64,000 nt of DNA from Pararhodobacter sp. (GTDB taxonomy: Bacteria; Pseudomonadota; Alphaproteobacteria; Rhodobacterales; Rhodobacteraceae), in assembly GCA_020832805.1 (NCBI GenBank), contig JAFIED010000006.1, positions 15,336 through 79,335 of the forward strand, read 5' to 3'. The translations under genes were made by a program, and so were the position numbers. Positions 12,629 to 38,608 of the stretch are shown here, piece by piece. The notes beneath the pieces were generated by a model that saw only the letters and a program-made list of their open reading frames with translations, ran no database searches and was not told the origin of the DNA. Numbering within the stretch: position 1 is the first letter of the stretch; each line of letters starts with the position of its first letter.

Positions 12629-12648
12629 CTGTTGTCTCCCGGTTTCGC

Positions 12649-13500: not shown

Positions 13501-13539
13501 GTCATTCCTCTTCCCTTGGAACTTTCGGGCGGAACTGCG

Positions 13540-14313: not shown

Positions 14314-14321
14314 GCCGCCCC

Positions 14322-18155: not shown

Positions 18156-18234
18156 ATTGGTGGCGGGTTGCCGGGCGACCGGGCGCAGCGCAGAATGCAG
18201 CATCTTCAGAAAACCACCAAAGGGGATTCTGCCC

Positions 18235-18978
18235 ATGGCACTTCGGCGCATACCGCTAAACGGGGCGGTCAACTTTCGTGACCTCGGCGGCTATCCGGTT
18301 GCGGGCGGCCGTCAGACACGCTGGCAACGGCTGTATCGCTCTGATTCGCTGGCGGAACTGGATGCCGACGATCTGGCCCGGCTTCAGGCGCTGGGCCTGC
18401 GCAGCCTGTGCGATTTCCGGCTGCCGGAAGAGGCCGCCAAGAAACCGAACCGGCTGCCCGATGGCCATGCCATCCAGCTGCATGCGATCGGCTTCATCCC
18501 GGAGGGGACGCTGGACATGCTGGCATCGGTCGGTGACGGGCGCCTGCCCGCGGCCGAGATCGAGGCCGAGGTGCTGCGCCATTACGGCAAGTTCATCCAC
18601 GATCACCAAACGGAATACCGGCGCTTTTTCGAACTCTTGCTGGATGACGCCAATCTGCCCCTGCTGGTGCATTGCACCTCGGGCAAGGATCGCACCGGCA
18701 TTGCCGCGGCGCTGGCCCTTCTGGCGCTGGGCGTTCCACGGGCAGAGGTGGTCAGGGATTACACCCTGACCAATGATTACCGGCGCGACATTGCCCATCT
18801 GTTCACCGGCGCAGTGGACCGGGGCGCACTGCAGGTGCTGACTACCGCCAACCCCCGTTACATCGAAAGGGCGCTGGATGAACTGGACAGCGCCTATGGC
18901 GGGATTGCCGGCTGGTTCGACACCGTGGGCCTGGGCCGCGCCGCATTGGATGACCTGCGCGCCCGGCTGACAGAATGA
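18235..18978 (+). CDS. tyrosine/dual-specificity phosphatase family protein (Y_phosphatase3, MptpB/IphP-like)
   Basis: NFRDLGGY, LYRSD, HCTSGKDRTG P-loop, DYTLTN. Confidence 0.92.
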   Translation: MALRRIPLNGAVNFRDLGGYPVAGGRQTRWQRLYRSDSLAELDADDLARLQALGLRSLCDFRLPEEAAKKPNRLPDGHAIQLHAIGFIPEGTLDMLASVGDGRLPAAEIEAEVLRHYGKFIHDHQTEYRRFFELLLDDANLPLLVHCTSGKDRTGIAAALALLALGVPRAEVVRDYTLTNDYRRDIAHLFTGAVDRGALQVLTTANPRYIERALDELDSAYGGIAGWFDTVGLGRAALDDLRARLTE

Positions 18979-19052: not shown

Positions 19053-19823
19053 TCAGGCGAATTTCACCTTCAACCGCTGACGAAACGCGTGATCGGTCAT
19101 GTTCAGCTGGATCGGGCAGACCGAGACCGCCTTGTCGCGAATCGCCTCCAGGTCGGTGCCGGGGTCAAAGCCGCCATCGGTATAGGCCAGCTTGATCCAG
19201 TAATAGGGCACATCCCGCCCATCAACGCGCCGGTCCGGCAGGAAAGACCCCGGCGGGCGCTGCCCCTGCGCCACAACCCGCACGCCGGTCACCTGATCGG
19301 GCATGGCATCGGGGAAGTTGATGTTGACGAAACTGCCCGGCTGCCATTCGGTGGCCAGCAGGGTTTCCAGAATCTGCGGCGCAAAGGCCTCGGCCGTTTC
19401 CCAGGGGACGTGGGCGCGCGGGGTAAATACCTGGCTCAGCGCCACCGAAGGCACCCCCAGCAACGCCCCCTCCATCGCCGCCGCCGCGGTGCCGGAATAG
19501 GTGACATCCTCGGCAAGGTTGGCGCCCCGGTTGATACCTGACAGCAGGATGGTCGGCTTCTCGGGCATGAGTTCGTGTATCGCCAGCAGCGCACAATCGG
19601 TCGGTGTACCCTTGACCGCAAAATGACGGTCATCGATCTTGCGCGCCCGTACCGGGATATGCATTGATATCGAATGCGAGGCACCGGATTTCTCTTCATC
19701 CGGGGCGACAACCCAGACATCATCGGTAAAGCGCCTTACAAGGGTTTCAAGCAGTTTGATCCCCTCGGCATGAATGCCATCGTCGTTCACGATCAGCACA
19801 CGGTGCTTGCTGGCGTCGGTCAT
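19053..19823 (-). CDS. surE: 5'/3'-nucleotidase SurE family phosphatase
   Basis: NDDGIHAEG, VVAPDEEKSGASHS, GTPTDC, SGINRGAN, YSGTAAAAMEG. Confidence 0.93.
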   Translation of the reverse strand: MTDASKHRVLIVNDDGIHAEGIKLLETLVRRFTDDVWVVAPDEEKSGASHSISMHIPVRARKIDDRHFAVKGTPTDCALLAIHELMPEKPTILLSGINRGANLAEDVTYSGTAAAAMEGALLGVPSVALSQVFTPRAHVPWETAEAFAPQILETLLATEWQPGSFVNINFPDAMPDQVTGVRVVAQGQRPPGSFLPDRRVDGRDVPYYWIKLAYTDGGFDPGTDLEAIRDKAVSVCPIQLNMTDHAFRQRLKVKFA

Positions 19824-19898: not shown

Positions 19899-19941
19899 CA
19901 TGAGGAGCACAACCCGGTTCCATCCGGGCAAGGGGGGAAAG

Positions 19942-21183
19942 ATGCGCGAAGTTTTCGTGGTTGGTGTCGGCATGACGCCCTTTGGCCGCTGGCCGGATCG
20001 CAGCGTGGGCGACATGGCACAGGATGCGGTGCGCGCGGCACTGGCCGATTGCGGGCTGGGGCCGGAGGCGGTGCAATCCATCGCCTTTGCCAATGCCGTT
20101 CAGGGCGCGATGGAGGGGCAGTTCGGCATTCGCGGACAGATCGCGCTGCAAGAGATGCCCTTTGATGCCGTGCCCATCATCAATGTCGAAAACGCCTGTG
20201 CCAGCGCCTCGACCGCGTTCAACATCGCGCTCAGCCAGATCCGCGCGGGCGAGGTGGATGTGGCGCTGGCGGTGGGGTCGGAAAAGATGGTGCATGCCGA
20301 TGGCGCCCTGTCCATGGCGGCGTTCGAGGGCAGCTGGGACCGCGCCCGCCGCGATGCCACCATCGAACGGCTGACGGCGCTGGGCCACGGCATGCCCACA
20401 CCGCCTGAACAGGCGGCGCGCGAATCGCCGCGCACGGTGTTCATGGATGTCTATGCTGCCTTTACCAAATACCACATGGCCCGATTCGGCACCACGCAGC
20501 GGCAGATGGCGGCGGTGGCGGCGAAGAACCACAATCATTCGGTGCACAATCCCCTGTCGCAATACCGCAAGCCCTTTACCGTCGACGAGGTCTTGCAGGC
20601 CCGGCTGATCGCCTGGCCGCTGACGCTGCCGATGTGTTCGCCGATCAGCGACGGGGCGGCGGCGGCGGTGCTGGTATCCGGCGAGGCGTTGAAGCGGTTG
20701 GGGCTTTTGCGCGCGGTGCGGGTGCGCGCGCAGGTGCTGATGAACGGCGGCAGGCGGGCGCCCGATCAGGTAGAGCGCCATATCTCGCACCGCGCGGCGC
20801 ATCGGGCCTACGAACTGGCCGGGCTGGGGCCGGAGGATGTGGATGTGGCCGAATGCCACGACGCCACCGCCTTTGGCGAGATCCAGCAAAGCGAGAATAT
20901 GGGCTTCTTCGCCTTTGGCGAGGGCGGGCCGGCGGCGGAGCGCGGCGAGACGAGCCTTGGCGGGCGCATTCCCTTCAACCCCTCGGGCGGGCTGGAATCA
21001 AAGGGCCACCCCATCGGCGCCACCGGGCTGGGGCAGATATTCGAACTGGTGACACAGTTGCGCGGCGAGGCAGGCAAGCGGCAGGTCGAAGGGGCGCGGA
21101 TTGCGTTGCAGGAGAACGGCGGCGGGCTGATGGGCGTGGAAGAGGCCGCAGTGGCCGTAACTTTGCTGGAGCGCGCAACATGA
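19942..21183 (+). CDS. thiolase family protein (SCP-x / lipid-transfer type)
   Basis: VENACASASTA, CSPISDGAAA, AECHDAT, SKGHPIGATG. Confidence 0.92.
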   Translation: MREVFVVGVGMTPFGRWPDRSVGDMAQDAVRAALADCGLGPEAVQSIAFANAVQGAMEGQFGIRGQIALQEMPFDAVPIINVENACASASTAFNIALSQIRAGEVDVALAVGSEKMVHADGALSMAAFEGSWDRARRDATIERLTALGHGMPTPPEQAARESPRTVFMDVYAAFTKYHMARFGTTQRQMAAVAAKNHNHSVHNPLSQYRKPFTVDEVLQARLIAWPLTLPMCSPISDGAAAAVLVSGEALKRLGLLRAVRVRAQVLMNGGRRAPDQVERHISHRAAHRAYELAGLGPEDVDVAECHDATAFGEIQQSENMGFFAFGEGGPAAERGETSLGGRIPFNPSGGLESKGHPIGATGLGQIFELVTQLRGEAGKRQVEGARIALQENGGGLMGVEEAAVAVTLLERAT

Positions 21184-22733
21184 GCCTGGCGATTCTGCTG
21201 GCCAATGCCGCCCGGCGCCACGCAGATAGCCCGGCGGTTTCCGTTGGTTTGCAGACCGTGTTGACCTATGGCCAGATGGGGGCGCGGGCGGCGGCGCTGG
21301 CCGGTGGCATGATGGCGCGTCACGGGCTGCGGCCGGGTGACCGCGTGGCGCTGGCCCTGCGCAACTGCCCGGAGTACCTGGAAATCCTGTTTGGCTGCTG
21401 GCATGCGGGGCTGGTTGCCGCACCGATGAACGCAAAGCTGCATGCGCAAGAGCTGGCTTATATGGCCGGCGACTGTGGCGCACGGCTGGTTGTTGCAGAT
21501 GATGATATCGCTGCGGCACTGGCCCCACATCTGCCCGGGGTGCCGCAGCTGGTGCCCGGCAGCGCTGCGTATCGGCGCCTGCTGGCAGGTGATCCGCTGC
21601 CGCTGTACCCGGTTGACCCGGCCGATGCCGCCTGGCTGTTCTACACCTCGGGCACCACCGGCAAGCCCAAGGGCGCGATGCTTTCCCACCGCAACCTGAT
21701 GGCCATGGCCATCGGTTATCTGGCCGATGTCGATGCGCTGGACGAACGCGACGGCTTGATCCATCTGGCGGCGACCTCGCATGCCTCGGGCCTGTTCGGC
21801 CTGTCCTTTGTTGCCAAGGGGGCGAACAACATCCTGCCCGAATCGGGCGGTTATGACGGCAACGAACTGGCGGGGTTGATCGGCGCGCGTGCGCGTCTCA
21901 GCTTTTTCGTGCCGCCGACCCTTTTGCGCCGCATGGTTGCCGATCCCGTTCTGCTGGCCGCCCCGAATCAGAATATCCGCACGATCCTGCTGGGTGCCGC
22001 GCCGGTCTTTGCCCAGGATTTGCGGGCGGGCGTCCAGGCGTTCGGCCCACGGCTGTGGAACGGCTATGGCCAGGGCGAAAGCCCCTGCACCATTACCGCC
22101 ATGAGCCAGCGCGACATTGCCGATGCACTGGCGGTGGGCAACGAAAGCCGGCTTGCCTCGGTCGGCACGGCGCGCAGCGGCACACAAGTGATCGTTGCCG
22201 ACGACCAGGGGCAGCCGTTGCCGCCCGGTGCGACCGGCGAGGTTCTGGTGCGGGGCGAAACCGTCATGGCCGGCTACTGGAACCGGCCGGAAGCCACGGC
22301 AGAGACCCTGCACAAGGGCTGGCTGAAAACCGGCGACATGGGCCGGATGGACGATGCCGGCTTCCTTTGGCTGCTGGACCGCCGAAAGGATGTCATCATC
22401 TCGGGCGGGGTGAACATCTATGCCAGGGAAATCGAAGATGTCCTGCACGATCACCCTGGTATCGCCGAGGCCGCCGTGGTCGGCCAGCCGGACCCTGAAT
22501 GGGGTGAAAGCGTGGTGGCCTTTGTCGTGCCCAGCCCCGGCGCGACAAGCGATCCCGCGGCATGGGAACAGATGCTGGCGGAACGGCTGGCCCGGTTCAA
22601 GCGCCCGCGCCACTGGCGGATCGTCGACACCTTGCCAAAGAACGCAGCCGGCAAGGTTCTGAAACGCCAGTTGCGCGCCGACCTTGCAACCCAATCCGGC
22701 GGCACCGACCAGGCCGCGTGGGTGCGAAGATAA
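21180..22733 (+). CDS. AMP-binding acyl-CoA synthetase
   Basis: YTSGTTGKPKG, YGQGE, TGDMG, DRRKDVIISGG, LPKNAAGKV; ATGA overlap with thiolase. Confidence 0.93.
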   Translation: MSLAILLANAARRHADSPAVSVGLQTVLTYGQMGARAAALAGGMMARHGLRPGDRVALALRNCPEYLEILFGCWHAGLVAAPMNAKLHAQELAYMAGDCGARLVVADDDIAAALAPHLPGVPQLVPGSAAYRRLLAGDPLPLYPVDPADAAWLFYTSGTTGKPKGAMLSHRNLMAMAIGYLADVDALDERDGLIHLAATSHASGLFGLSFVAKGANNILPESGGYDGNELAGLIGARARLSFFVPPTLLRRMVADPVLLAAPNQNIRTILLGAAPVFAQDLRAGVQAFGPRLWNGYGQGESPCTITAMSQRDIADALAVGNESRLASVGTARSGTQVIVADDQGQPLPPGATGEVLVRGETVMAGYWNRPEATAETLHKGWLKTGDMGRMDDAGFLWLLDRRKDVIISGGVNIYAREIEDVLHDHPGIAEAAVVGQPDPEWGESVVAFVVPSPGATSDPAAWEQMLAERLARFKRPRHWRIVDTLPKNAAGKVLKRQLRADLATQSGGTDQAAWVRR

Positions 22734-22758
22734 TTGTTCGACAATTTTGTATGAGACT
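22733..22758. promoter_or_regulatory. tandem operator boxes, site 3
   Basis: ATTGTTCGACAAT + degenerate TTTGTATGAGACT, immediately followed by TTGACA (-35-like, 22761) upstream of the core operon. Confidence 0.75.
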
Positions 22759-22858
22759 TGTTGACAGGGCGGGATCGAACCGTCAGTCTGACGCCAACGA
22801 ACCAGGAGGGGAGCCCGGTTCGTGAGACCCGGAAAAGCAGCGCCAGAGGGAGGAAGCG

Positions 22859-23608
22859 ATGGCAAAGCTATACGTGGATAACGACAAGTTCGGTTATCAA
22901 TCCGCCTCGCCCACGGTCGAGGCGTTCCATGCCGCCATCAAGGACATCGTGCGCCGCAAGCTGGACGACTGCGGCGGCGACTGGGACAGTTTTGTCTTTG
23001 ACAAGTCCTATGACCTGATCACCGCCGAAGACATGGCAAGCGTCGAACAGATGCTGCTGGACGCCGGGCACAAGTTCGACTGGTCAGCGGCGATCAGCCC
23101 GCGCGAGAAACCTGAAATCTACAAGCCCGCCGCCGGCGTGTCGGACGAGGACATGGCCACCTTCAGCTTCGAACACCCCGAGGCGAAAACGGCCGATGCC
23201 GATGCTGACGGGCGCGAATTGCGCGGCATTGGCGACAATGTGGCGCAGTATCCGCAGAACTGCAGCGGCACCGCGCGCTACATCCGGTCGCCCGATCAGG
23301 TGCTGAAATACCTGAACGAGGGCGTGCCGGCCGACACCATCGCCATCATCGACGATTCGGGCGGCACGCTGACCGCGCCCATCCTTGAGCATTTCAAGGG
23401 CGTGATCTGCGCCGGCGGGTCCACGCGGTCGCATCTGGGCATCCTCACGCGCGAATACGGCGTGCCATGCCTGATGAATGCCAAGATCAGCGGCATCCGG
23501 CAGGGCGATATCGTCGAGATCGAGGTGACCGCCAAGGCCAAGACGGCAGAAGCCTATCAGACCGGGGTCGAGATGACCGCCAATGTCTGGCGGCTGAACA
23601 AGGCCTGA
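22859..23608 (+). CDS. PEP-utilising enzyme mobile (phospho-His swivel) domain protein with unknown N-terminal domain
   Basis: GVICAGGSTRSHLGILTREYGVPC (His192) matches the T/S-S-H-x-x-I-x-x-R-E-x-G-x-P phosphohistidine signature. Confidence 0.88.
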   Translation: MAKLYVDNDKFGYQSASPTVEAFHAAIKDIVRRKLDDCGGDWDSFVFDKSYDLITAEDMASVEQMLLDAGHKFDWSAAISPREKPEIYKPAAGVSDEDMATFSFEHPEAKTADADADGRELRGIGDNVAQYPQNCSGTARYIRSPDQVLKYLNEGVPADTIAIIDDSGGTLTAPILEHFKGVICAGGSTRSHLGILTREYGVPCLMNAKISGIRQGDIVEIEVTAKAKTAEAYQTGVEMTANVWRLNKA

Positions 23609-23644
23609 TCCAAGCGCCGGCGCACAATCTGGGAGGAGTTACCA

Positions 23645-25201
23645 ATGGCGCAGAATCGCATTTCATACGCGCAACTGCTTGAAACCAACAACATGATGCA
23701 GACCTGCTCTGACGAGACCTATTGGCTCTGCGTTACCCGCACGGTGCAGGAATCAAAGCTGTTTCCCGTGCCTGCCTACATGATGCTCAGCTATCTGAAC
23801 GCCTTTTACCGCTACCCGTCGCTGTTGAAAAAGATCGAAAGCCGCATGTCGGCCGAGGAGATCGGCGACCGGGCGCGCAACATGGGCATGAAGATTCAGA
23901 ACCCGTCGATGGGCTGGGCGCTGCCGGGCTTTTATCTGCTGGGCCGCGAATGGCTGATCAACATGGGCCTGCTGAAGCCCACGGACGCCATCGAGGATGT
24001 GGTCTATGTGATGGATTTCTGGAAGCGTTTCCAGCTGTCCTGGCACCGCAACGACGGGCACATCACCAACAAGGAATACGGCCACCGCGCGCAGGTGCTG
24101 CCCGAAAGCCGGGTGCAGGTCTTTCATGCCGACATGTATGACTGCGTCGAGGGGGACGAGCTGCACGAAGCCGCGCAGACCTTCATGGCCTCGGCCAGCC
24201 AGTACGGGTTCCTGATCTCCTGCGAAAGCCGCATCAGCCTGCACAATTCCGGCCCCTACAAGCTGGCCGACGACCGCGAAATGATCGTGCGCGACTTCAT
24301 GGACCTGTCGGAATCGGATTTCCCCTGGCTGGATGACGTCGCTGCGGGCGTGCCGCATAACAACATCACCGTGACAATGGCGGTAAAGGACTGCCATTTC
24401 TATCTGGTCGATGACTGGGGCTCGTTCGAGGCGCAGCCGGAATTCAAGGCCGACAAACTGGTGGGCGTGGGGCTTTACACCTCTGACAACCTGTCGGATG
24501 GCTACATGCCGCTGGGCATGGAATCGCGCGAGGCGCTCATCGCCAAGTTCAACGAGTTGAACGCCCAGGTAAAGGACGCCACCACCCAGCTGTGGAAGCG
24601 CATCGCCGCCTGGTCGCGCGACCAGATGATCGACGCCGGCGCGATCACCTATTTCGCCATCATCAAGGATCTGGCCCATGTCGCCGGTGTCTACGACGTC
24701 GACGACTGGATGAAGATCGACGAGCGCGCCGAACGCTTCCGCCCGCTGCTGAACGACGAATTCAGCCGTGACGCGCTGGGCGAGCTGGTGGGTCTGGTAT
24801 CGCATCCCAGCCAGCAGGTGATGGAATACACCATGGCGATGCATTCCAACAAACCGGTGCGGATGTATTCCAACATCCCCTATTCGGTACTGGCGGGCGA
24901 GCCCTACACGGCCTCCAGCGGGCCGGTCTATCCGGGCATCACCTATCTGCCGGAAAAGAAGGATGCCTATACCACCACGCGCGGGCGCATGACCCTGGCC
25001 GAATACAACAAGGCAAGCCGGGAATTCACGCCGCCAACGCTGACCGACAAGTACCGCCACCTGTGCGACACCTGGGTGAAATACAATGCCGGCAGCGAAC
25101 TGGCCGACGAGATGTACAAGCTCGAACAGGCCCGGTCGCGCAACCTGAAGGGCAAGGGATCGTCGCTGAAACGCGCCGATGTCGAAAAGCTGCGCGGCTG
25201 A
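23645..25201 (+). CDS. conserved hypothetical protein (518 aa), candidate substrate-binding subunit of a split dikinase
   Basis: GGAGGAG RBS, strong GC3 codon bias, globular composition; no motif recognised; function inferred only from context. Confidence 0.85.
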   Translation: MAQNRISYAQLLETNNMMQTCSDETYWLCVTRTVQESKLFPVPAYMMLSYLNAFYRYPSLLKKIESRMSAEEIGDRARNMGMKIQNPSMGWALPGFYLLGREWLINMGLLKPTDAIEDVVYVMDFWKRFQLSWHRNDGHITNKEYGHRAQVLPESRVQVFHADMYDCVEGDELHEAAQTFMASASQYGFLISCESRISLHNSGPYKLADDREMIVRDFMDLSESDFPWLDDVAAGVPHNNITVTMAVKDCHFYLVDDWGSFEAQPEFKADKLVGVGLYTSDNLSDGYMPLGMESREALIAKFNELNAQVKDATTQLWKRIAAWSRDQMIDAGAITYFAIIKDLAHVAGVYDVDDWMKIDERAERFRPLLNDEFSRDALGELVGLVSHPSQQVMEYTMAMHSNKPVRMYSNIPYSVLAGEPYTASSGPVYPGITYLPEKKDAYTTTRGRMTLAEYNKASREFTPPTLTDKYRHLCDTWVKYNAGSELADEMYKLEQARSRNLKGKGSSLKRADVEKLRG

Positions 25202-25218
25202 ACCCCGCCCGGCGCCCC

Positions 25219-25247
25219 GCCCCGGCCGCTTGCTCCCCGGCCGGGGC
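25219..25247 (+). other. intra-operon GC-rich hairpin (attenuator or mRNA stabiliser)
   Basis: GCCCCGGCCG-N9-CGGCCGGGGC followed by CTTT after the 518-aa gene. Confidence 0.4.
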
Positions 25248-25276
25248 CTTTCGCACGAAACACACGGAACAGGACG

Positions 25277-26764
25277 ATGCAGATCGGCTCTCTCATCCGC
25301 CGGGCGGCGGTGCATTTCGGTGATGCCCCCTGCCTGACCGAAGGCGCACGCAGTTTCAGCTACCGCGACTTCGACGCGGCCACCGACCGGCTGGGCAATG
25401 CGCTGCTTGCCAGCGGGTTGCAGCCGGGTGACCGGGTGGGTGTGCTGCTGCCCAATTCCATCGAATGCCTGATCGCCTATTACGCGCTGGCCAAGGCCGG
25501 GCTGGTGCGCGTGTCGCTGAACACGCGCGAGACACTGGAAAACCACAACTACAAACTGGCCGACAGCGGATCGCGTGCCGTGATCCATCAGGATATCGAC
25601 GGCTTGCAGGTAGAGCGCGCCATCGGTGCGGCCGAACTGGCACAGATGATCGCGGGCGGCGATGCCACCCCCTGCGCCATCGACCGCGACCTGGATGCGC
25701 CCCTGCGGCTGGGCTATACCGGGGGCACCACCGGCCAGCCGAAGGCGGTGACGCTGACCACGCGCGGCGAACTGGCCGAGCTCAGTGCGTTTCTGACCGA
25801 CCTGATGCCCGATATCCGCCCCGGCGACACCTTTTTGCATGCCGCGCCTATCGCCCATGCCTCGGGCGCGTTTTTCCTGCCCGCCATCACCTGTGGTGCG
25901 CGCTCTCTCATCATGCCGAAGTTCGATGCCGCCGAGTTCCTGGCACTTGCCGCGCGCGAACAGGCAAGCCTGACCTTTCTTGTACCCACGATGCTGGCCA
26001 TGATCATGGAGGCACCCGGCATCGACAGCGCGCAACTGAATTTCCGGCGCATCGCCTATGGCGCCTCGCCCATCTCGCCCACGCTGCTGGAACGCGCCGA
26101 GGCCCGGTTTGGCCGTGTCTTTGCCCAGACCTATGGCCAGGCCGAAAGCCCCATGGTGATCACCTGCCTGAAACCCGAAGACCATGACCGCATCGGCTCT
26201 TGCGGGCGGCCTTTCACCATCGTCGAGGTCGCGGTCTTTGACGACAACGACCAGCCCCTGCCGCCGGGCGAAAAGGGCGAGATCGTGTGTCGCGGCCCGC
26301 AGACCATGGCCTATTACTGGAACCGGCCAGAGGCGACGGAAAAGGCATTTCGCAACGGCTGGCTGCATACCGGCGACATCGGCACCATGGACGAGGACGG
26401 CTTCTTCTACATCCTCGACCGCAAGAACGACATGCTGATTTCCGGCGGCTTCAACGTCTACCCGCGCGAGGTGGAAGAGGTGCTGATGGCCTATCCCGGC
26501 GTGGTCGAAGCCGCCGTGGTGGGCCTGCCGGATGACACCTATGGCGAACGGGTCCATGCCGTTGTTTCGGGTCGCGCGGGACTGGATGCGCAGGCAATCC
26601 TTGAACACGCGCGCGGGCAGCTGGCGGGCTACAAGCGGCCGCGCGGCATCGACATCTGGCCAGAGCTGCCAAAGAGTTCGGCCAACAAGATTTTGCGGCG
26701 CGCGGTCCGTGACCGGCTGATCACCGAGGCCGGCACCCAGCCCGCCGCCGCCGCACAGGATTGA
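25277..26764 (+). CDS. AMP-binding acyl-CoA synthetase
   Basis: YTGGTTGQPK, YGQAE, WLHTGDIG, DRKNDMLISGGFNVYPREVE, LPKSSANKI. Confidence 0.93.
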   Translation: MQIGSLIRRAAVHFGDAPCLTEGARSFSYRDFDAATDRLGNALLASGLQPGDRVGVLLPNSIECLIAYYALAKAGLVRVSLNTRETLENHNYKLADSGSRAVIHQDIDGLQVERAIGAAELAQMIAGGDATPCAIDRDLDAPLRLGYTGGTTGQPKAVTLTTRGELAELSAFLTDLMPDIRPGDTFLHAAPIAHASGAFFLPAITCGARSLIMPKFDAAEFLALAAREQASLTFLVPTMLAMIMEAPGIDSAQLNFRRIAYGASPISPTLLERAEARFGRVFAQTYGQAESPMVITCLKPEDHDRIGSCGRPFTIVEVAVFDDNDQPLPPGEKGEIVCRGPQTMAYYWNRPEATEKAFRNGWLHTGDIGTMDEDGFFYILDRKNDMLISGGFNVYPREVEEVLMAYPGVVEAAVVGLPDDTYGERVHAVVSGRAGLDAQAILEHARGQLAGYKRPRGIDIWPELPKSSANKILRRAVRDRLITEAGTQPAAAAQD

Positions 26765-26777
26765 GGGAGGAAAGACC

Positions 26778-27383
26778 ATGCAACAGATGCATCTTGCCCT
26801 GCACGGGCTGGCCATCAAGAAACACGGCAGCCCCGCCGAAGTGGCCGCCATCGTGGGTTTGGATGAAGGCACCGCCGCCACCCTGCTGGACCAGGCCGCC
26901 GCCAACGGCCGCGCGGCCAGGGCGGGCGAGGCCAAATTCATGCTGACCGCGCCCGCGCAGATGGCCCTGCGCATGGAATACGGCAGGCTTTACGCCGATC
27001 TGCGCGCCAATGACGCCATGAACGCCGCCTATGACCGGTTCGAAAAGGTCAATGCCGACCTGAAGCAGTTGATCACCGACTGGCAGACAATCGAAGTGGC
27101 AGGCTCGCGCGTGCCCAATGATCATTCGGACAAGGCCTATGACGCGCGCATCATCGACCGGCTGGGCGCGCTGCACGAAGCTGCAGAACAGGTGATCGGC
27201 CAGATGGCGGCGCATCTGCCGCGCCTGTCGGTCTATGGCGATCTGCTGACCGAGGCGCTGGAAAAGGCCGAGGACGGCGCGCATGAATGGGTCAGCGACG
27301 CCAAGCTGCCAAGCTATCACACCGTCTGGTTCGAGATGCACGAGGACCTTCTGCGCATTCTCGGGCGCGAGCGCGATGAATAA
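26778..27383 (+). CDS. winged-HTH protein resembling mycobacterial Rv1126c (partner of truncated PpdK)
   Basis: N-terminal LHGLAIKK..AEVAAIVG wHTH-like segment; C-terminal SYHTVWFEMHEDLL motif recalled from the protein encoded beside mycobacterial ppdK; overlaps the ppdK-like start. Confidence 0.7.
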   Translation: MQQMHLALHGLAIKKHGSPAEVAAIVGLDEGTAATLLDQAAANGRAARAGEAKFMLTAPAQMALRMEYGRLYADLRANDAMNAAYDRFEKVNADLKQLITDWQTIEVAGSRVPNDHSDKAYDARIIDRLGALHEAAEQVIGQMAAHLPRLSVYGDLLTEALEKAEDGAHEWVSDAKLPSYHTVWFEMHEDLLRILGRERDE

Positions 27384-29196
27384 ACCGATGACCATCACCC
27401 CCCCCCATTCCGGCCATGACGGCCGCTGGACACTGACGCTGGACGGCGCAGAGTTGCCCCCGGCATCATTGATCGGCGGCAAGGCTTGGTCGGTGGCGCG
27501 CATGCTGTCATTGGGGCTGCCGGTGCCTCCCGCATTCGTCATCACCACCGAAGCCTGCCGCGCCTATCTGGCCAGCGGCGCCATGCCCGCCGGTCTGGAA
27601 GACCAGATCCGCGACGGCATACGCGACCTGGAGGCCCGCACAGGCCATGCCTTTGGCGGCCCCGGCGTGCCGCTTCTGGTCTCGGTGCGTTCCGGCGCGC
27701 CGATTTCCATGCCGGGAATGATGGACACCATCCTGAATCTGGGCATTTCCGACGAGACCGAGGCGCATCTGGCACAGGCGACAGGCGATGCCGGCTTCGC
27801 GCGCGACACGCATCGCCGCTTCTATGACCTTTACGCCAGCATCGTCTGCAAGGCCGTTGGCGCCGAATTCGATGCCGATGCCGGGTCGGCCGACTGGGAT
27901 GCCGTGCTGCAGGCGGCGACCGGCCAGACCATGCCCGAAACCGTCGAGGAACGCCTGTTCGCAGCGGTCCGCGCGGTCTTTGAAAGCTGGAACGCACGGC
28001 GCGCCAGGCGCTATCGTCAGCACCATGGCATACCGGACGATCTGGGCACCGCCGTCACCATTCAGGCCATGGTATTCGGCAATCTGGACGCCAACAGCGG
28101 CACCGGCGTGCTGTTCAGCCGCAACCCGCTGACCGGCGCGCGCGAGCCTTACGGCGAATACCTGCCGCGCGCGCAGGGCGAGGATGTGGTATCGGGCAAG
28201 TTCACGCCCGAACCCCTGTCGCGTATGGCCGAGCACGAACCGCAGGCCCATGCCGATCTTCTGCGCGCGGCAGAGGTCCTGGAACGTGAGAACGGTGATG
28301 TTCAGGATATCGAATTCACCGTGCAGCATGGCAAGCTCTACCTGTTGCAGACCCGCGCTGCCAAGCGCGCGCCGGATGCGGCCGTGCAGATCGCGGCGGA
28401 CATGGTCGCCGACGGCACAATCACCCCGCAAAAGGCCCTGAGCCGGGTATCCGCCGCGCAGGTGCGCAGCCTTCTGGCCCCGCGCCTGACACGGGCACCG
28501 GGCCCGGAAACAGAGGTGCTGGCACAGGGTGAAGGCGCCAGCCCCGGTGTGGGCCGCGGCATTGCCGTGACCGATGCCGATGAGGCCGAACAGCGCGCCG
28601 CGCAGGGCGAAGAGGTTGTGCTGGTGCGCGCCATCACCAGCCCCGAGGATGTGCATGGCATGATCGTGGCGCGCGCCGTGGTCACCGAAACCGGCGGCTC
28701 TACCTCGCATGCCGCGGTGGTGGGGCGCGCGTTGGGTCTGCCGTCGGTGGTGGGCTGCGGCGCGGGCGTGGTCGATGCGTTGAAGGGCCGCGAAATCACG
28801 GTCGAGGGCAGCATGGGCAAGGTCTTTGCCGGGCTGCTGGACGTATCCACCCCCGACGAGCGCAGCGATCCACGTCTGGCGCAATTGACCGAATGGGCGC
28901 GCGCCGCCAGCCCCTTGCGCGTCCTGCGCCCTGACGAGGTGCCTGCTGGCAGCGATGTGCAGGACCTGTCGCATGTCGAAGGGGGCGAAGACCCCCAGCA
29001 GATTGGCCGTGTCCTGCAAGGCGTGCGCGCCGCCCAGGGGGGGGCCATCGGGTCTGACGAAGGGGTGCGCGCCGCCATGGATCAGGGGCTCGAATTCATC
29101 GTCTGTACCCCGGTGCTGCCGGCCCTTCTGGCTGCCGTGCATTACGCCGCCGAACAGGCCGGCCAGATGACAGACACCCAACCCGCCGTTGACTGA
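27376..29196 (+). CDS. pyruvate,phosphate dikinase-like protein lacking the C-terminal PEP/pyruvate barrel (606 aa)
   Basis: GGKA, LLVSVRSGA..SMPGMMDTILNLG, QAMVFGN, SGTGVLFSRNP, QGEDVVSG, DIEFT..LQTR, GGSTSHAAVVGR (His445); only a short tail follows the swivel domain. Confidence 0.92.
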   Translation: MNKPMTITPPHSGHDGRWTLTLDGAELPPASLIGGKAWSVARMLSLGLPVPPAFVITTEACRAYLASGAMPAGLEDQIRDGIRDLEARTGHAFGGPGVPLLVSVRSGAPISMPGMMDTILNLGISDETEAHLAQATGDAGFARDTHRRFYDLYASIVCKAVGAEFDADAGSADWDAVLQAATGQTMPETVEERLFAAVRAVFESWNARRARRYRQHHGIPDDLGTAVTIQAMVFGNLDANSGTGVLFSRNPLTGAREPYGEYLPRAQGEDVVSGKFTPEPLSRMAEHEPQAHADLLRAAEVLERENGDVQDIEFTVQHGKLYLLQTRAAKRAPDAAVQIAADMVADGTITPQKALSRVSAAQVRSLLAPRLTRAPGPETEVLAQGEGASPGVGRGIAVTDADEAEQRAAQGEEVVLVRAITSPEDVHGMIVARAVVTETGGSTSHAAVVGRALGLPSVVGCGAGVVDALKGREITVEGSMGKVFAGLLDVSTPDERSDPRLAQLTEWARAASPLRVLRPDEVPAGSDVQDLSHVEGGEDPQQIGRVLQGVRAAQGGAIGSDEGVRAAMDQGLEFIVCTPVLPALLAAVHYAAEQAGQMTDTQPAVD

Positions 29197-29224
29197 CCGG
29201 CGTTTTCAGACAAGCGAGGCCCGC

Positions 29225-29767
29225 ATGAAAACCCCTGACACCGCTCCCCAGCAGGTCAAACCCGAGGATATCGAGGCGCTGATCGAGGTCTTTCAGGCCT
29301 CTGACTGGGACGAAATGCACCTGACAATGGGCGAATTCGAGATCTTTCTGTCGAACGACCCCAACGCCGCGCCGCAAGGCGCCGCACCAGCCCCCGCGCC
29401 CGCACCGGCCGCGCTGGCCGCCAGCGCGGCATCTGCTGCTGCACCCGGTGCTGCGCCTGCACTGGCCGCGCCAGCCCCCGCAGCCGGCGGGCCCGCCAGT
29501 GCTGGGGCCGAGGATGTGCCGGCGCATTGGCAGGTCGTCAGCGCCCCCAATCTGGGCACTTTCTACCGCGCGCCCAAACCCGGTGCCGCCAATTATTGCG
29601 AAGTCGGCCAAAGCGTGACTGCAGACAGCGAATTGTGCCTGATCGAGGTGATGAAGCTGTTTACCGCGCTGCGCGGTGGTATCGCGGGCACGGTGCGGCG
29701 CATCTGTGTGGCCGATGGCGAGATGGTCGAATACGGCCAGCCGCTTTTCTATATCGAGCCGGCATAA
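29225..29767 (+). CDS. biotin carboxyl carrier protein (AccB-like)
   Basis: Ala/Pro linker, GTFYRAPKPG, IEVMKL biotinyl-Lys motif, VEYGQPLF. Confidence 0.95.
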   Translation: MKTPDTAPQQVKPEDIEALIEVFQASDWDEMHLTMGEFEIFLSNDPNAAPQGAAPAPAPAPAALAASAASAAAPGAAPALAAPAPAAGGPASAGAEDVPAHWQVVSAPNLGTFYRAPKPGAANYCEVGQSVTADSELCLIEVMKLFTALRGGIAGTVRRICVADGEMVEYGQPLFYIEPA

Positions 29768-29770
29768 GCC

Positions 29771-31150
29771 ATGCCTGTCAAACGCCTTTTCGTGGCCAAC
29801 CGTGGCGAGATCGCCCTGCGCATCCTGCGTTCGGCCCGCGCGATGGGAATCGAGACGGTGCTGGGCGTTTCGGCTGCCGACCGCGAGGGCGCCGGGCCTG
29901 AGGCAGCAGACCGCGTGGTGGTGCTGGGTCCGGCACCCTCGGCCAAAAGCTATCTGGACCCGCGCCTGATCGTCCATGCCGCCGCCGCCACTGGCTGCGA
30001 CGCGCTGCATCCGGGCTATGGGTTCCTGTCCGAAAAACCCGAGCTGGCGCGCCTGTGCGAGGAAGAGGGCATCGCCTTTGTCGGCCCGCGCCCCGAAACC
30101 ATCGAGGCGCTGGGCGACAAGATGTCAGCCCGCGCCATGGCCATTGCTGCGGGTGTGCCCATCGTACCGGGCACCGATCACATCGCCGATCTGGACAGCG
30201 CGCGAAAGGCAGCGGCGGAATTGGGCTATCCGGTGGTGATGAAGGCCTCGGCCGGCGGCGGCGGGCGCGGCATGTTCAAGGCGGCCAGTGAGGCCGAACT
30301 GAACGCCTCGTTCGAGAGCGCCTCGCGCGCGGCGCAGGCGGCCTTTGGCGACAGCCGGCTTTACATGGAGCGTTTCGTCGAGGCAGCGCGCCATGTCGAG
30401 GTGCAGGTCATCGGCGACGGCGAGGGGGGCGTGCTGCATTTCGGCGAGCGTGACTGTTCCGTGCAGCGCCGATACCAGAAGCTGATCGAGGAAGCGCCCG
30501 CCAGCGCCATGCCCGACGCGCTGCGCACCCGCCTGCACGAAGCCGCCATCCGCATCTGTGCCCATGCCCGCTACCGCAATGCCGGCACGGTGGAATTCCT
30601 GTACGACGTGGCGCGGCAGGACATCTATTTCATCGAGGTCAATTCCCGCATCCAGGTCGAACACCCCGTGACCGAGGAGATCACCGGCATCGACCTGATT
30701 GCCTGCCAGCTGAAGGTCGCGGGCGGCGATGCGCTGGGCCTGACACAGGCTGATATCCGCCCCGCCGGCCATGCCATCGAGGTGCGCATCAACGCCGAGG
30801 ACCCGTTCGCCGATTTCCGCCCCTCGCCCGGGCGCATCACGGGCTGGGAACCGCCACGGGGGCCGGGCGTGCGGCTGGATAGCCACGCGCGCGCGGGTTA
30901 TCTGGTGCCCCCCTTTTACGACTCGATGATCGGCAAGCTGATCGTGCATGGCCATGACCGGGCCCAGGCCATCGACCGCCTGTTGCAGGCCATTGCCGAT
31001 TTCCGGCTGGAAGGGCCGCAGACCACGCTGCCGCTGGCTGCGCACATCCTGGACCACCCCGACTTTCGTGCAAACACATTCACGACCCGCTGGCTGGAGG
31101 ATCGGGTATTGCCCGATTTCGCCGCCGAGCGCCGTGCTGATGCCCCCTGA
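29771..31150 (+). CDS. biotin carboxylase subunit (AccC-like)
   Basis: ANRGEIA, HPGYGFLSE, GGGGRGM, ERDCSVQRR, EVNSRIQVEHPVTE, YDSMIGK. Confidence 0.96.
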   Translation: MPVKRLFVANRGEIALRILRSARAMGIETVLGVSAADREGAGPEAADRVVVLGPAPSAKSYLDPRLIVHAAAATGCDALHPGYGFLSEKPELARLCEEEGIAFVGPRPETIEALGDKMSARAMAIAAGVPIVPGTDHIADLDSARKAAAELGYPVVMKASAGGGGRGMFKAASEAELNASFESASRAAQAAFGDSRLYMERFVEAARHVEVQVIGDGEGGVLHFGERDCSVQRRYQKLIEEAPASAMPDALRTRLHEAAIRICAHARYRNAGTVEFLYDVARQDIYFIEVNSRIQVEHPVTEEITGIDLIACQLKVAGGDALGLTQADIRPAGHAIEVRINAEDPFADFRPSPGRITGWEPPRGPGVRLDSHARAGYLVPPFYDSMIGKLIVHGHDRAQAIDRLLQAIADFRLEGPQTTLPLAAHILDHPDFRANTFTTRWLEDRVLPDFAAERRADAP

Positions 31151-31164
31151 AGGAGAACGCCCCG

Positions 31165-32625: not shown

Positions 32626-32628
32626 GCC

Positions 32629-33813
32629 ATGGCAGCCCGGCGCGCCGTGATCGTCGATCTGCTGCGCAGCCCCTGGGGCCGGGGGCGCGCAGATGGCGGG
32701 CTGGCCGCGCTGCACCCGGTCGATCTGTATGCCCAGGTGCTGCGCGGTCTGATACGCCGCAACGGGCTGGACCCGGCGCTGGTGGAAGATGTCATCACCG
32801 GCTGCGTGATCCAGGTCGCCGAACAATCCGGCAATATCGGCCGGCAGGCGGCGCTGGCGGCGGGGTTTCCGGTCAGCGTGCCGGCGGTGACGCTGGATCG
32901 TAAATGCGGCTCGGCCCAGCAGGCGATGGATTTCGCAGCACAGGGCATCATCGCCGGCGCCTATGACGTTGTCATCGCCGGCGGCGTAGAGATGATGAGC
33001 CGTGTGCCGATGCGCGCCAACCGCATGGGCAAGGATAACCTGGGCCCCATGTTGCGCGCCCGCTACCCTGACGGCTTCGTGCATCAGGGCATCTCGGCAG
33101 AACTGATCGCCGCGCGCTGGAACCTGAAGCGCCGCGCATTGGACCAATATGCCGCGCGCTCGCATCGGCTCGCGCATGCCGCGCGCGCGGCCGGGCTGAC
33201 CGCGCGCGACATCCTGCCCATCGATACCCCCGCAGGCACCGTCACCCTGGACGAGGGCCTGCGCCCCGACACCTCGGCAGAGATCCTGGCCGGGCTGAAG
33301 CCTGCCTTTTTCGACGCCGAGGTGGCGCGCGCCTATCCGCAGATCCGCTGGTCGGTCACGGCCGGGAATGCCAGCCAGGTCAGCGACGGGGCAGGCGCGG
33401 CGCTGTTGATGGAAGAAGCCACCGCCCTTGCCCTGGGCCGGACCCCGCGTGCGGCCATCACCCATTTTGCAGTGGCGGGCGACGATCCGATCCTGATGCT
33501 GACCGGCGTGATTCCCGCCACGCGCAAACTGCTGGCCCGCGCTGATCTGGGCATCGACGCCATCGACGCGTTCGAGGTCAACGAAGCCTTTGCGCCCGTC
33601 GTGCTGGCCTGGCAGCACGAAACAGGCGCCGCATCCGAACGCGTGAATCCACTGGGCGGCGCCATCGCCCTGGGTCACCCGGTCGGCGCTTCGGGTGTGC
33701 GGCTGATGGGCAACCTTCTGGCGCGGCTGGAAGCAACGGATGGCCGGCGGGGATTGATCACCATGTGCGAATCCGGTGGTATGGCCAACGCAACGCTGAT
33801 CGAGCGTCTATAG
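32629..33813 (+). CDS. acetyl-CoA C-acyltransferase (thiolase)
   Basis: DRKCGSAQQA, TAGNASQVSDGA, EVNEAFA, GHPVGASG, MCESGG. Confidence 0.95.
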   Translation: MAARRAVIVDLLRSPWGRGRADGGLAALHPVDLYAQVLRGLIRRNGLDPALVEDVITGCVIQVAEQSGNIGRQAALAAGFPVSVPAVTLDRKCGSAQQAMDFAAQGIIAGAYDVVIAGGVEMMSRVPMRANRMGKDNLGPMLRARYPDGFVHQGISAELIAARWNLKRRALDQYAARSHRLAHAARAAGLTARDILPIDTPAGTVTLDEGLRPDTSAEILAGLKPAFFDAEVARAYPQIRWSVTAGNASQVSDGAGAALLMEEATALALGRTPRAAITHFAVAGDDPILMLTGVIPATRKLLARADLGIDAIDAFEVNEAFAPVVLAWQHETGAASERVNPLGGAIALGHPVGASGVRLMGNLLARLEATDGRRGLITMCESGGMANATLIERL

Positions 33814-38495: not shown

Positions 38496-38608
38496 AGTCA
38501 TTCCGAAGATAATGAATTTGCATTCCATGGCTTGCCGGGGCTAGTCACAGTGCAGCGCCGTAATGGCGCTTTTTGACGTTAAATTCACCCAGTGTGGAAA
38601 GGTCCGCC

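Follow-up and report, generated by a model that had tools for sequence, protein, structure and literature searches.

Four proteins encoded in one operon of Pararhodobacter sp. probably constitute a kinase, not described before, that uses ATP to put a phosphate tag on a food molecule, which is then carboxylated and broken down. In the stretch of DNA analysed (64,000 nucleotides, hereafter the window), these are a 249-aa phospho-histidine carrier (Sw249), a 518-aa protein without known family (U518), a 201-aa protein (U201) and a truncated PPDK (Table 1). We favour, at somewhat better than even odds, the reading that a PPDK-derived dikinase is here divided among four proteins, that Sw249, U518 and U201 make up its acceptor half and that it feeds the adjacent biotin carboxylase. 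A first-pass annotation of this DNA had proposed a relay from ATP via two phospho-histidines to a substrate held by the 518-aa protein; its observation is confirmed here and its overall interpretation partly supported. No account of this combination of genes turned up in the literature searched.

The catalytic steps that we infer would run as follows. The truncated PPDK would bind ATP and place a phosphoryl group on a histidine. The Sw249 swivel, tethered to U518 through a helical anchor and a long linker, would bring the phosphoryl, attached to His192, to a conserved U518 site rich in arginine, where a small-molecule substrate would be phosphorylated, while U201 probably docks PPDK onto U518. 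The adjacent biotin carboxylase would then carboxylate the phosphorylated compound at its methyl-ketone group, to be followed by dephosphorylation (PTP-type enzyme and/or SurE), activation by CoA ligase and cleavage by thiolase.

Table 1. Features of the operon and its surroundings, in window positions.
Feature	Position	Strand	Remarks
Y_phosphatase3, tyrosine-phosphatase-type	18157..18978	+	PF13350, E 2.8e-64
SurE-family phosphatase/nucleotidase	19053..19823	-	PF01975, E 1.9e-56; start codon approximate
SCP-x-type thiolase	19900-21183	+	Pfam match
AMP-forming CoA ligase	~21180-22733	+	Pfam match
Palindrome ATTGTTCGACAAT	22733..22745	.	Immediately past upstream ligase stop codon, ~115 nt before Sw249 start
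Sw249, swivel protein, 249 aa	22859..23608	+	PF00391 match
U518, 518 aa, no known family	23645..25201	+	Proposed substrate-binding/acceptor subunit
GC-rich hairpin after U518 stop codon	25219..25247	+	10-bp GC stem, -29.3 kcal/mol
Second AMP-forming CoA ligase, between U518 and U201	25277..26764	+	Pfam and NCBIfam matches
U201, 201 aa	26778..27383	+	wHTH-like N-terminus, C-terminal motif SYHTVWFEMHEDLL; no family match
Truncated PPDK, 606 aa	27376..29196	+	ATP-grasp and own swivel (His445); proposed ATP-using donor half
BCCP	29189-29767	+	Pfam and NCBIfam matches
Biotin carboxylase	29771-31150	+	Pfam and NCBIfam matches
5S/PycB-type carboxyltransferase	31165-32625	+	Pfam and NCBIfam matches
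Beta-ketothiolase	32629..33813	+	Thiolase_N/C matches, TIGR01930

Sw249, U518 and U201 as a conserved module

Both reading frames (249 and 518 aa) lie exactly where the first-pass annotation had placed them. Sw249 consists of a three-helix N-terminal anchor (residues ~18–68), an extended linker (~70–118) and a swivel domain (119–246). The N-terminal ~120 residues, already flagged as unrecognised, gave no family match in Pfam, NCBIfam and PDB sequence searches. The C-terminal part, by contrast in annotation, has the swivel-domain fold, a PF00391 (PEP-utilizers) match above cut-off (residues 171–221, 29.8 bits vs. 23.1 in the profile search) and the catalytic histidine. Specifically, His192 lies within the motif GGSTRSHLGILTREYGVP, in a GG-containing loop that leads to the histidine (GGSTRSH) and is one residue longer than the canonical swivel-domain motif, GGxTSH. 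This histidine is invariant in all 38 aligned sequences, distant fused forms included, and at least 98% conserved across 79 Sw249 orthologues. In a Foldseek search with the AF2 model (pLDDT 88.7), the swivel part most resembled rifampin phosphotransferase (RPH; 5fbt, E 4.9e-5), together with 2fm4, a carrier domain of PPDK, and the C-terminal domain of pyruvate kinase.

For U518, searches of Pfam, NCBIfam and PDB sequences gave no match, and its 1033 homologues, from Alpha- and Gammaproteobacteria, are every one labelled “hypothetical.” Family members from the two classes are 60–96% identical, and certain Arg, Asp and Gly positions never vary; the conserved residues include R32, R78, G100, R101, R196 (CESR motif), GPY203–205, R216, D257 (DDWGSFE motif) and D354. 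The AF2 model scores well (pLDDT 92.5, pTM 0.92), and the fold searches used all 518 residues of it as a single query. Foldseek against the PDB returned TolC at the top (E 0.25, TM ~0.1), VIA-align against 48,161 representative chains reached a top Z of only 2.3, and none of 314 re-examined Foldseek candidates had Z ≥ 2. A Bet v 1/SRPBCC-like relation, suggested by weak Foldseek rows, was not confirmed. Neither an NCBIfam PRK08296/RPH match nor an RPH chain in the Foldseek or VIA-align lists links U518 to RPH, though a remote kinship may still exist. In keeping with the new fold proposed by the first-pass annotation, these searches detected no solved structure related to U518. This absence fits a U518 that serves as a new substrate-binding module in place of the missing barrel; because U518 lacks similarity to known substrate-binding or phosphotransfer domains, such a role rests on context and on modelling, a point that counts against our favoured explanation.

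Sw249 and U518 are an obligate, conserved pair. Of 80 related genome loci, drawn from Alpha- and Gammaproteobacteria, ~77 have the two genes side by side or at least within one cluster, so that, in the phylogenetic profiling the first-pass annotation had proposed, a swivel neighbour is not usually missing beside the 518-aa family. In nearly all of the 80, Sw249 lies directly upstream of U518 or elsewhere in its cluster, and U201 comes next in most. Fusions in distant relatives tie the same parts together. A swivel is joined to a U518-like domain in three proteins (P0173, P0197 and P0263), and U518 to U201 in P0123/P0126, where the U201 part is C-terminal to U518 (44% identity). All three parts (swivel, U518-like and U201-like) are combined in P0263, in Rhodococcus opacus B4 and more widely in proteins of ~770 aa, a family with 439 matches in Actinobacteria.

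Synteny also offers some ground for a different reading, in which U518 belongs to the carboxylase, or to some other enzyme of the pathway, in an accessory or catalytic capacity (for example as a decarboxylase, isomerase or scaffold) and the swivel pairing serves regulation or assembly. In four Sphingomonadales loci, U518 lies directly before the BCCP-BC-CT genes with Sw249 ~8 kb away. We nevertheless judge this reading very improbable, since in every fusion seen the U518-like domain is joined to the swivel and never to carboxylase parts, since PTP-Sw249-U518-U201-SDR cassettes occur without a nearby carboxylase, and since actinobacterial loci have the module without any carboxylase.

Modelling of the complex supports binding of Sw249 to U518. 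The predicted pair has an ipSAE of 0.87, compared with 0.00 for the best of three controls; among solved complexes 58 of 80 reach this value, and among mismatched pairs 2 of 110, counts that are rough since own alignments were used. Three runs share at least 83% of contacts, with partner pLDDT of at least 85. In the model, residues 4–88 and 164–200 of Sw249 contact U518, the N-terminal helices clamping it and the His192 loop (residues 190–192 at the interface) resting on its most conserved, arginine-rich patch. Beyond the anchor contacts, the U518 interface comprises 25 residues, among them six of the 22 conserved family-wide (R32, L39, P41, A182, L190 and R196; hypergeometric p = 3e-4). The multimer calculation proposed by the first-pass annotation for these two products therefore predicts binding, with the His192 loop docked on a conserved surface. 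On each point at which that proposal was most exposed, the data did not count against it: a swivel neighbour is usually present, His192 is conserved and no known unrelated fold was found for U518.

The first-pass annotation overlooked the importance of the 201-aa protein. U201 is integral to the module as its third member and probably serves as adaptor to the truncated PPDK, the start codon of which its gene overlaps. Nothing meaningful was found for it in Pfam, NCBIfam or PDB sequences.

The truncated PPDK and the route of the phosphate

The operon had been credited with two phospho-histidine carriers and a single dikinase-type ATP-grasp domain, and profile searches of operon and genome show this count to be correct: the truncated PPDK, which has a swivel of its own, is the sole dikinase-type ATP-grasp protein of the operon and of the whole genome. 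It has PPDK_N and PEP-utilizers only (NF004531, 697.7 bits), and among 42 PPDK orthologues the conservation of its His445 is 98% or higher. As a marker of VadK-type proteins NF004531 was rejected as unspecific, for it also matches canonical PPDKs in control genomes. The PEP-utilizers_C barrel (PF02896) was found in none of the 10 cluster proteins (20634–33813) or the flanking genes scanned.

The truncated PPDK gene lies in the cluster or at another locus: nine of the 10 genomes whose module locus has no truncated PPDK carry an orthologue elsewhere. Small gammaproteobacterial MAGs have two complementary loci, one with PTP-Sw249-U518-U201-SDR and the other with thiolase-PPDK-BCCP-BC-CT-thiolase-SDR, and in R. 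opacus B4 and Paraconexibacter a truncated PPDK gene neighbours the fused module.

If the split-dikinase reading is right, the phosphate could reach His192 by relay from His445 or directly from the ATP-grasp site, two routes that we hold equally plausible, each at slightly less than an even chance; some other route is rather unlikely. Several points weigh against the favoured explanation here. The Sw249 and PPDK swivels are distant (34% identity over 44 residues), PPDK has retained a swivel and His445 of its own although Sw249 would carry the phosphate, and we know of no precedent for His-to-His transfer between two swivel domains. A single-chain form that would decide whether one swivel suffices was not found, as no fusion of U518 to an ATP-grasp domain occurs among the proteins searched: no U518-containing protein of at least 908 aa was found, and the best 120 relatives of the triple fusion have PF00391 only, with neither PPDK_N nor a module–ATP-grasp fusion, which is weak evidence. 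A literal “di-kinase” is an improbable variant. In it, His445 would take the pyrophosphoryl of ATP and His192 one phosphoryl, and both would phosphorylate substrate on U518, so that each ATP turned into AMP would pay for two phosphorylations; PEP synthase and PPDK discard the gamma-phosphate to water or phosphate. Were this variant true, phosphotransfer from one swivel to another would be seen for the first time, and the dikinase superfamily would gain a new substrate-binding fold.

By architecture alone, the donor half resembles VadK (Rv1127c) and its partner Rv1126c, in that a PPDK ends after the swivel, has no barrel and has a ~200-aa neighbour gene. VadK, the truncated PPDK of M. tuberculosis, autophosphorylates on its swivel histidine and tightly binds and co-purifies with its small neighbour Rv1126c (PMC13400623). 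It is described as a methylcitrate-cycle regulatory kinase without reported swivel or U518-type partners, whereas the module here has both Sw249 and U518. [quoted passage not shown] We consider such a relay highly unlikely given that the cluster already has its own GntR/FCD regulator, that the conservation of U518 described above is enzyme-like, and that the module occupies fixed positions within catabolic operons of several different pathways.

Operon context and the acceptor

The biotin-dependent carboxylase (BCCP, biotin carboxylase and carboxyltransferase) co-occurs with the module in most loci and presumably acts on the phosphorylated product; the genome has no second carboxylase cluster, and two UPF0261 genes lie elsewhere in it. 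Two enzymes are candidates for removing the tag. The Y_phosphatase3 gene is directly upstream of the swivel gene in “short” cassettes and beside the module in Rhodococcus, and the SurE gene, a candidate second phosphatase, is kept next to the cluster in alphaproteobacterial loci. Of the two CoA ligases, the second is missing in many gammaproteobacterial clusters, and the listed 699-aa reading frame of the upstream one is too long, its AMP-binding domain beginning at residue 190.

Given the favoured explanation, the acceptor is on balance expected to be a hydroxyl that bears a temporary tag, by analogy with HpeHI/CreHI; the enol of a ketone has a smaller, though appreciable, chance. The analogy to Cre was rejected as a guide to a phenolic substrate: the phenol analogy is insecure because the actinobacterial P450s beside fused modules are CYP125/CYP124/CYP153-like rather than CreJ-like. 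The neighbouring ABC transporter is of sugar type (Peripla_BP_4), ill-suited to a phenolic substrate.

An enol acceptor is central to an alternative in which the system is an enol-phosphate synthase. U518 would bind a methyl ketone, His192~P would phosphorylate its enolate in the manner of PEP synthase but on a ketone that is not a carboxylate, and the carboxyltransferase would act on the enol phosphate with release of phosphate, leaving the phosphatases only to clear dead-end intermediates. Pyruvate is a methyl ketone on which both PPDK and pyruvate carboxylase act, and this counts for the alternative, as do the PPDK-derived donor half, the pyruvate-carboxylase 5S type of the carboxyltransferase and the retention of the PPDK gene with the carboxylase genes where the system is split in two loci. 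Against it, the module and truncated PPDK also occur with P450, aldehyde dehydrogenase and alcohol dehydrogenase genes, and because no carboxylase lies within the 19–20 kb flanks of these loci, an enol phosphate would have no obvious use there. Moreover, a tyrosine-phosphatase-type enzyme is tightly linked in three architectures, which suits a stable, removable tag. We therefore regard enol-phosphate synthesis as unlikely and retain the temporary-tag reading.

The first-pass annotation had further taken strong ribosome-binding sites, marked codon bias and a following hairpin as hints of higher expression. Strong sites are indeed present (GGAGG-type, 7–9 nt 5' of the ATG of both Sw249 and U518), but codon usage is only modestly biased: U518 has an Nc of 33.2, the same as the carboxyltransferase gene, and Sw249 one of 36.9, the operon average, and GC3 (0.83 and 0.84 for Sw249 and U518) is usual for coding sequence here. 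The hairpin likewise exists but is weak (z -2.0; 6 of 200 shuffles fold equally well). Uncalled by the terminator scan and lacking a U-tract, it is ruled out as a terminator and could be a weak attenuator or RNA-stability element. Taken together, the hint of higher expression is weak. Upstream of Sw249, the palindrome ATTGTTCGACAAT is followed ~25 nt downstream by a TTGACA hexamer, read from the sequence, and the two likely mark an operator/internal promoter region.

Comparison with known systems and implications

The closest known parallels are two-component phenolic dikinases, i.e., HpeHI (Rhodococcus rhodochrous GD02), AcvAB (Sphingobium sp. SYK-6), CreHI (C. glutamicum) and PpsAB (Thauera aromatica), all split homologues of rifampin phosphotransferase. 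HpeHI and AcvAB phosphorylate hydroxyphenylethanones ahead of a biotin carboxylase, and a phosphatase later strips the tag (PMC9618137; bioRxiv 10.1101/2022.04.28.489975); the HpeH swivel moves between the ATP-grasp subunit and the substrate domain (PMC12167813). The Hpe/Acv operons combine the kinase with BCCP, BC, a PycB-type carboxyltransferase (AcvE being described as PycB-like; bioRxiv 10.1101/2022.04.28.489975), a phosphatase and a CoA ligase, and their carboxylase takes only the phosphorylated ketone (PMC9618137; PMC12167813; bioRxiv 10.1101/2022.04.28.489975). The Pararhodobacter cluster is alike in pairing a kinase with BCCP, BC and a PycB-type carboxyltransferase (typed by Pfam/NCBIfam profile), a CoA ligase and a beta-keto-cleaving enzyme, and the proposed module shares with these dikinases an ATP-grasp donor, a swivel-His carrier and a substrate held on a separate domain.

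The differences are several. While the Sw249 swivel is nearest in fold to that of RPH, no similarity of U518 to the RPH/HpeH substrate domain was detected in sequence or fold, and the swivel is N-terminal in fused forms of the module instead of C-terminal as in HpeH. The donor is PPDK-type, with 606 aa, its own swivel and His445, unlike the ATP-grasp subunits of ~340–400 aa without a swivel in two-component dikinases, and the module adds a third protein, U201. In place of the HAD-type, NagD-like phosphatase of the Hpe/Acv operons (HpeD/AcvF), the cluster has a PTP-type Y_phosphatase3 and SurE. Canonical PPDK and PEP synthase share the ATP-grasp domain, swivel-histidine chemistry and—as proposed here—a carbonyl/hydroxyl acceptor at a remote site; unlike them, the module has no PF02896 TIM-barrel, and its acceptor site would be a separate protein of unrelated fold reached by a second swivel. 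The kinase step itself is interchangeable, because MarK (UPF0261, Novosphingobium aromaticivorans), a non-homologous kinase, replaces AcvAB upstream of the same carboxylase type (PMC12624787). In contrast to the module, MarK is a single protein, unrelated in sequence, that acts as a direct ATP kinase without phospho-histidine.

Bacteria have only recently been recognised to degrade inert phenolic and ketone compounds, lignin-derived ones included, by attaching a phosphate tag ahead of carboxylation or oxidation. Only two kinase types are, to our knowledge, known for this step, and the module would be a third. It is widespread (1033 U518 homologues in Alpha- and Gammaproteobacteria, 439 fused-form matches in Actinobacteria) and centres on a protein without known structural relative, together with a second phospho-histidine carrier. 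Cultured carriers include Pseudooceanicola atlanticus 22II-s11g, Chachezhania sediminis, Roseiarcus fermentans DSM 24875, Novosphingobium resinovorum SA1 and Rhodococcus oxybenzonivorans S2-17. It also offers a catabolic context for the pairing of a truncated PPDK with a small partner, of which the M. tuberculosis example, VadK/Rv1126c, is tied to virulence and has no defined acceptor. Solving the module would name several large “hypothetical protein” families and could yield new parts for lignin-valorisation strains.

Operon context of the swivel and U518 genes

The first-pass annotation had singled out two adjacent ORFs, one for a 249-aa swivel protein with a presumed phospho-His at residue 192 (Sw249) and one for a 518-aa protein (U518), and both were found at the coordinates claimed. 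Their GC3 values (0.83 and 0.84, respectively) lie in the range usual for the window's coding sequence, and each start codon has a GGAGG-type ribosome-binding site upstream. The codon bias and hairpin previously read as hints of higher expression fared less well: the bias is modest, with an Nc of 33.2 for the U518 gene (the carboxyltransferase gene's value) and 36.9 for the Sw249 gene (the operon average), and the hairpin 3' of the U518 stop codon exists (-29.3 kcal/mol) but is just 2 SD better than shuffled sequence, lacks a U-tract and was not called in a terminator scan.

Operon genes of the window, in order of transcription
Product	Position	Strand	Remark
SCP-x-type thiolase	19900-21183	+	first of the listed genes
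AMP-forming CoA ligase	~21180-22733	+	
Sw249	22859-23608	+	PEP-utilizers swivel
U518	23645-25201	+	no family
Second CoA ligase	25277-26764	+	
U201	26778-27383	+	201 aa, no family
Truncated PPDK	27376-29196	+	ends after swivel domain; ATP-grasp and His445, no barrel
BCCP	29189-29767	+	
Biotin carboxylase	29771-31150	+	
PycB/5S-type carboxyltransferase	31165-32625	+	
Thiolase	32629-33813	+	
EthD-like protein	33827-34126	+	

The first CoA ligase lies in an over-extended 699-aa GTG ORF (20634-22733) whose AMP-binding domain starts at residue 190, so that the true start is placed near 21180, overlapping the thiolase stop codon. Directly 3' of this ligase's stop codon is a perfect palindrome, ATTGTTCGACAAT (22733-22745), with a TTGACA hexamer ~25 nt further 3'; this arrangement suggests an internal operator/promoter before the swivel gene.

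On its upstream side the operon is flanked by genes for two phosphatases, one of the tyrosine-phosphatase type (Y_phosphatase3) and one of the SurE family, and by a sugar-type ABC transporter in divergent orientation. Its downstream neighbours code for SDRs, an alcohol dehydrogenase of the Zn-dependent kind and a regulator of the GntR/FCD type. The transporter genes are followed by those for an ADC-family (acetoacetate decarboxylase-like) protein, a 3-hydroxyacyl-CoA dehydrogenase and an enoyl-CoA hydratase (11843-14742, minus strand), in place of which one compared locus (L001) has an acyl-CoA dehydrogenase. Whatever the transporter carries is probably broken down as a CoA ester. A full-length, five-domain MetH (cobalamin-dependent methionine synthase; 38573-42367) that flanks the cluster is probably unrelated to it. 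Each gene of the module (Sw249, U518 and U201) is single-copy in this genome, and no further dikinase-type ATP-grasp protein of the truncated-PPDK kind was found elsewhere in it. Two UPF0261 proteins, of the family of MarK, the other aromatic kinase type described of late, are encoded in the same genome outside the window (C271:4838-5338 and C134:5370-5897).

Conservation and fusion of the module

U518 has 1033 homologues, none of them named (66-96% identity among the best 120). When the window's proteins were compared with 80 alpha- and gammaproteobacterial loci, almost every locus had a Sw249 orthologue directly 5' of U518, and most had U201 3' of U518. In the Sphingomonadales layout (L070, L075, L076 and L087), Sw249 sits ~8 kb 3' of U518 within the same cluster; at L065 and L082 no Sw249 was detected within the sequence examined, and the contig of L050 is too short to judge. 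Two layouts recur, i.e., the full cluster and a short PTP-Sw249-U518-U201-SDR cassette without a nearby PPDK or carboxylase.

Among ten genomes checked that have no PPDK at the module locus, nine carry a PPDK orthologue elsewhere (53-63% identity); in the tenth, a MAG, none was found, and its other module-bearing contig ends just before the expected PPDK position. Three gammaproteobacterial MAGs (~2.0, 2.0 and 5.4 Mb) have a second locus (L090, L091 and L093 in genomes G003, G007 and G005) with SCPx-thiolase, PPDK, BCCP, BC, CT, thiolase and SDR, from which all three module genes are absent; their partner loci (L071, L064 and L081) read PTP-swivel-U518-U201-SDR, and the two loci thus sum to the full set. 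In such split genomes PPDK goes with the carboxylase genes and U201 with U518.

Distant U518 relatives, recovered by exhaustive profile-free search, are ~370 aa long and cover U518 residues ~13-380 at 27-33% identity. Several of them (P0173, P0197 and P0263) carry an N-terminal swivel that resembles Sw249's specifically (37% identity, TRSH motif kept), and a 382-aa relative is encoded directly 3' of a 114-aa swivel-only protein. In P0123 and P0126, U518 is fused to a U201 part (44% identity to U201). P0263 (777 aa) and a 793-aa protein of Rhodococcus opacus B4 plasmid pROB02, annotated as "PEP-utilizing enzyme," join swivel, U518-like and U201-like parts and retain the HTVW-E-HED motif. Such triple fusions form a large actinobacterial family (439 matches). 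By fusion and linkage, therefore, Sw249, U518 and U201 form one unit: adjacency across the loci and fusion in distant forms bear out the pairing recognised at first pass, which had missed U201 as a third part.

Rhodococcus oxybenzonivorans S2-17, a cultured strain and good experimental entry point, carries three paralogous swivel/U518-type sets on plasmid pRB98 (L085, 7902-25592), two of them short or fused and the third a full cluster with PPDK, carboxylase, DUF35 and thiolase, tyrosine phosphatase and SRPBCC. Proteins with DUF7064/DUF7065 (PF23212/PF23213) recur directly 3' of distant swivel and U518-like pairs (L085 11127-12269; L125 13971-15941; L126 11325-12254; the metagenome contig of P0159), in one case fused to an APH/EcKL kinase domain.

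Folds and modelled complex of Sw249 and U518

Sw249 residues 171-221 match the PEP-utilizers swivel domain above the Pfam cut-off, with weak NCBIfam matches to the C-terminal swivels of PigC, PpsA-like PRK08296 proteins and rifampin phosphotransferase (RPH)-like "PEP synthases." Its model (pLDDT 88.7) comprises an N-terminal three-helix bundle, an extended linker and the swivel domain, the last being closest in structure to rifampin phosphotransferase and to the carrier domain of PPDK. U518 had no match in Pfam, NCBIfam or PDB sequences. The structure prediction and Foldseek search proposed for it at first pass gave a confident model (mean pLDDT 92.5, pTM 0.92; alignment of 44 sequences) and no structural relative, whether by Foldseek against PDB, by VIA-align against 48,161 representative chains or among re-examined Foldseek candidates. 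The best whole-chain values were E 0.25 (Foldseek) and Z 2.3 (VIA-align), the latter far under the Z of 7-8 that, by the tool's own statement, even models lacking any clear match commonly reach.

Modelling supports binding of Sw249 by U518: the complex scored 0.87 (0.87, 0.87 and 0.88 in three runs) and the best of three controls 0.00, with at least 83% of contacts shared among runs and partner pLDDT of at least 85. Of 80 solved complexes, 58 reach this mark, as do 2 of 110 mismatched pairs; both counts apply only roughly, because alignments of our own were used. The best-defined contacts in the model join Sw249 20-80 to U518 105-115, 313-328 and 360-394, so that the formerly "unrecognised" Sw249 N-terminus reads as a clamp. 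Its 120 N-terminal residues are missing in fused and distant forms, and the clamp may stand in for the covalent link of the fused ones.

On the question whether His192 docks on U518, the interface in the same model includes the Sw249 swivel loop (164-177, 186-187, 190-192 with His192, and 195-200). Because residue pairs are listed for the anchor contacts only, the loop's likely partners (U518 32-44, 178-196, 262 and 266) were assigned by elimination. The 25 U518 residues so assigned include 6 of the 22 family-wide conserved positions (p = 3e-4), among them invariant R196 and R32. An arginine-rich, conserved patch facing the phospho-His is the look that an acceptor active site would be expected to have.

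Possible phosphate route and substrate, and known dikinases

We propose that the truncated PPDK, Sw249, U518 and U201 would constitute a split dikinase, with the PPDK as ATP half and the module as acceptor half, in which His192 would swing on the Sw249 linker from the phosphate source to the U518 site. Both histidines seem needed, because His445 is conserved across 42 PPDK orthologues and actinobacterial loci retain a swivel-bearing truncated PPDK next to a fusion with its own swivel; the Sw249 and PPDK swivels are of different lineages. Phosphate could possibly pass from His445 to His192, as originally proposed, or reach His192 straight from the ATP-grasp site, or the two phosphates of a pyrophosphoryl-histidine could be split between both carriers. 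Searches of U518 and triple-fusion relatives found no single-chain fusion of the module with an ATP-grasp domain. U201, which may be a homologue of Rv1126c, may act as an adaptor to the PPDK, as its fusion to U518 and, by analogy, the behavior of Rv1126c suggest. The truncated PPDK VadK (Rv1127c) autophosphorylates on its swivel His, and Rv1126c co-purifies with it (PMC13400623).

The window's gene content copies the Hpe/Acv pathway logic—kinase, biotin carboxylase that takes the ketone in phosphorylated form only, phosphatase, CoA ligase and cleavage (PMC9618137)—in which the kinase step is interchangeable, as shown by MarK (PMC12624787). The main rival, that the product is an enol phosphate, has its own logic; from gene context we favor a hydroxyl group that bears the phosphate as a tag to be taken off later, because three architectures tightly link the module to an enzyme of the tyrosine-phosphatase type, because it also occurs beside genes for P450s and for aldehyde and alcohol dehydrogenases with no carboxylase in the flanks read, and because short cassettes without carboxylase exist.

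Genes for P450s, aldehyde dehydrogenases and alcohol dehydrogenases or SDRs adjoin the fused swivel-U518-U201 genes of R. opacus B4 pROB02 (L086), Paraconexibacter (L125), L083 and L126, and fused actinobacterial modules often adjoin APH/EcKL-type kinases. Two of these P450s are closest, among PDB sequences, to CYP125/CYP124/CYP153 terminal-methyl hydroxylases and not to CreJ, which hints at substrates of the lipid, sterol or alkyl type; the window's transporter is of the sugar type.

The proposed system would work like the two-component phenolic dikinases (HpeHI, AcvAB), yet it falls outside that family: the ATP-grasp subunit, contrary to the family's defining feature, is PPDK-type with its own swivel, the domain order is reversed relative to HpeH, and U201 adds a third component. 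U518 has no detectable relation to the RPH/HpeH substrate domain, an absence of match with which remote kinship is compatible. Nor is this a canonical PPDK or PEP synthase, as those have the barrel that is lacking here. Literature searches found no description of the Sw249-U518-U201 module. The first-pass interpretation is thus supported in part, namely for the pairing of Sw249 with U518 and for a new acceptor module, on sequence and model evidence, and the system is noteworthy for its unmatched U518 fold, its second phospho-His carrier, its wide distribution and its link to VadK-type truncated PPDKs.
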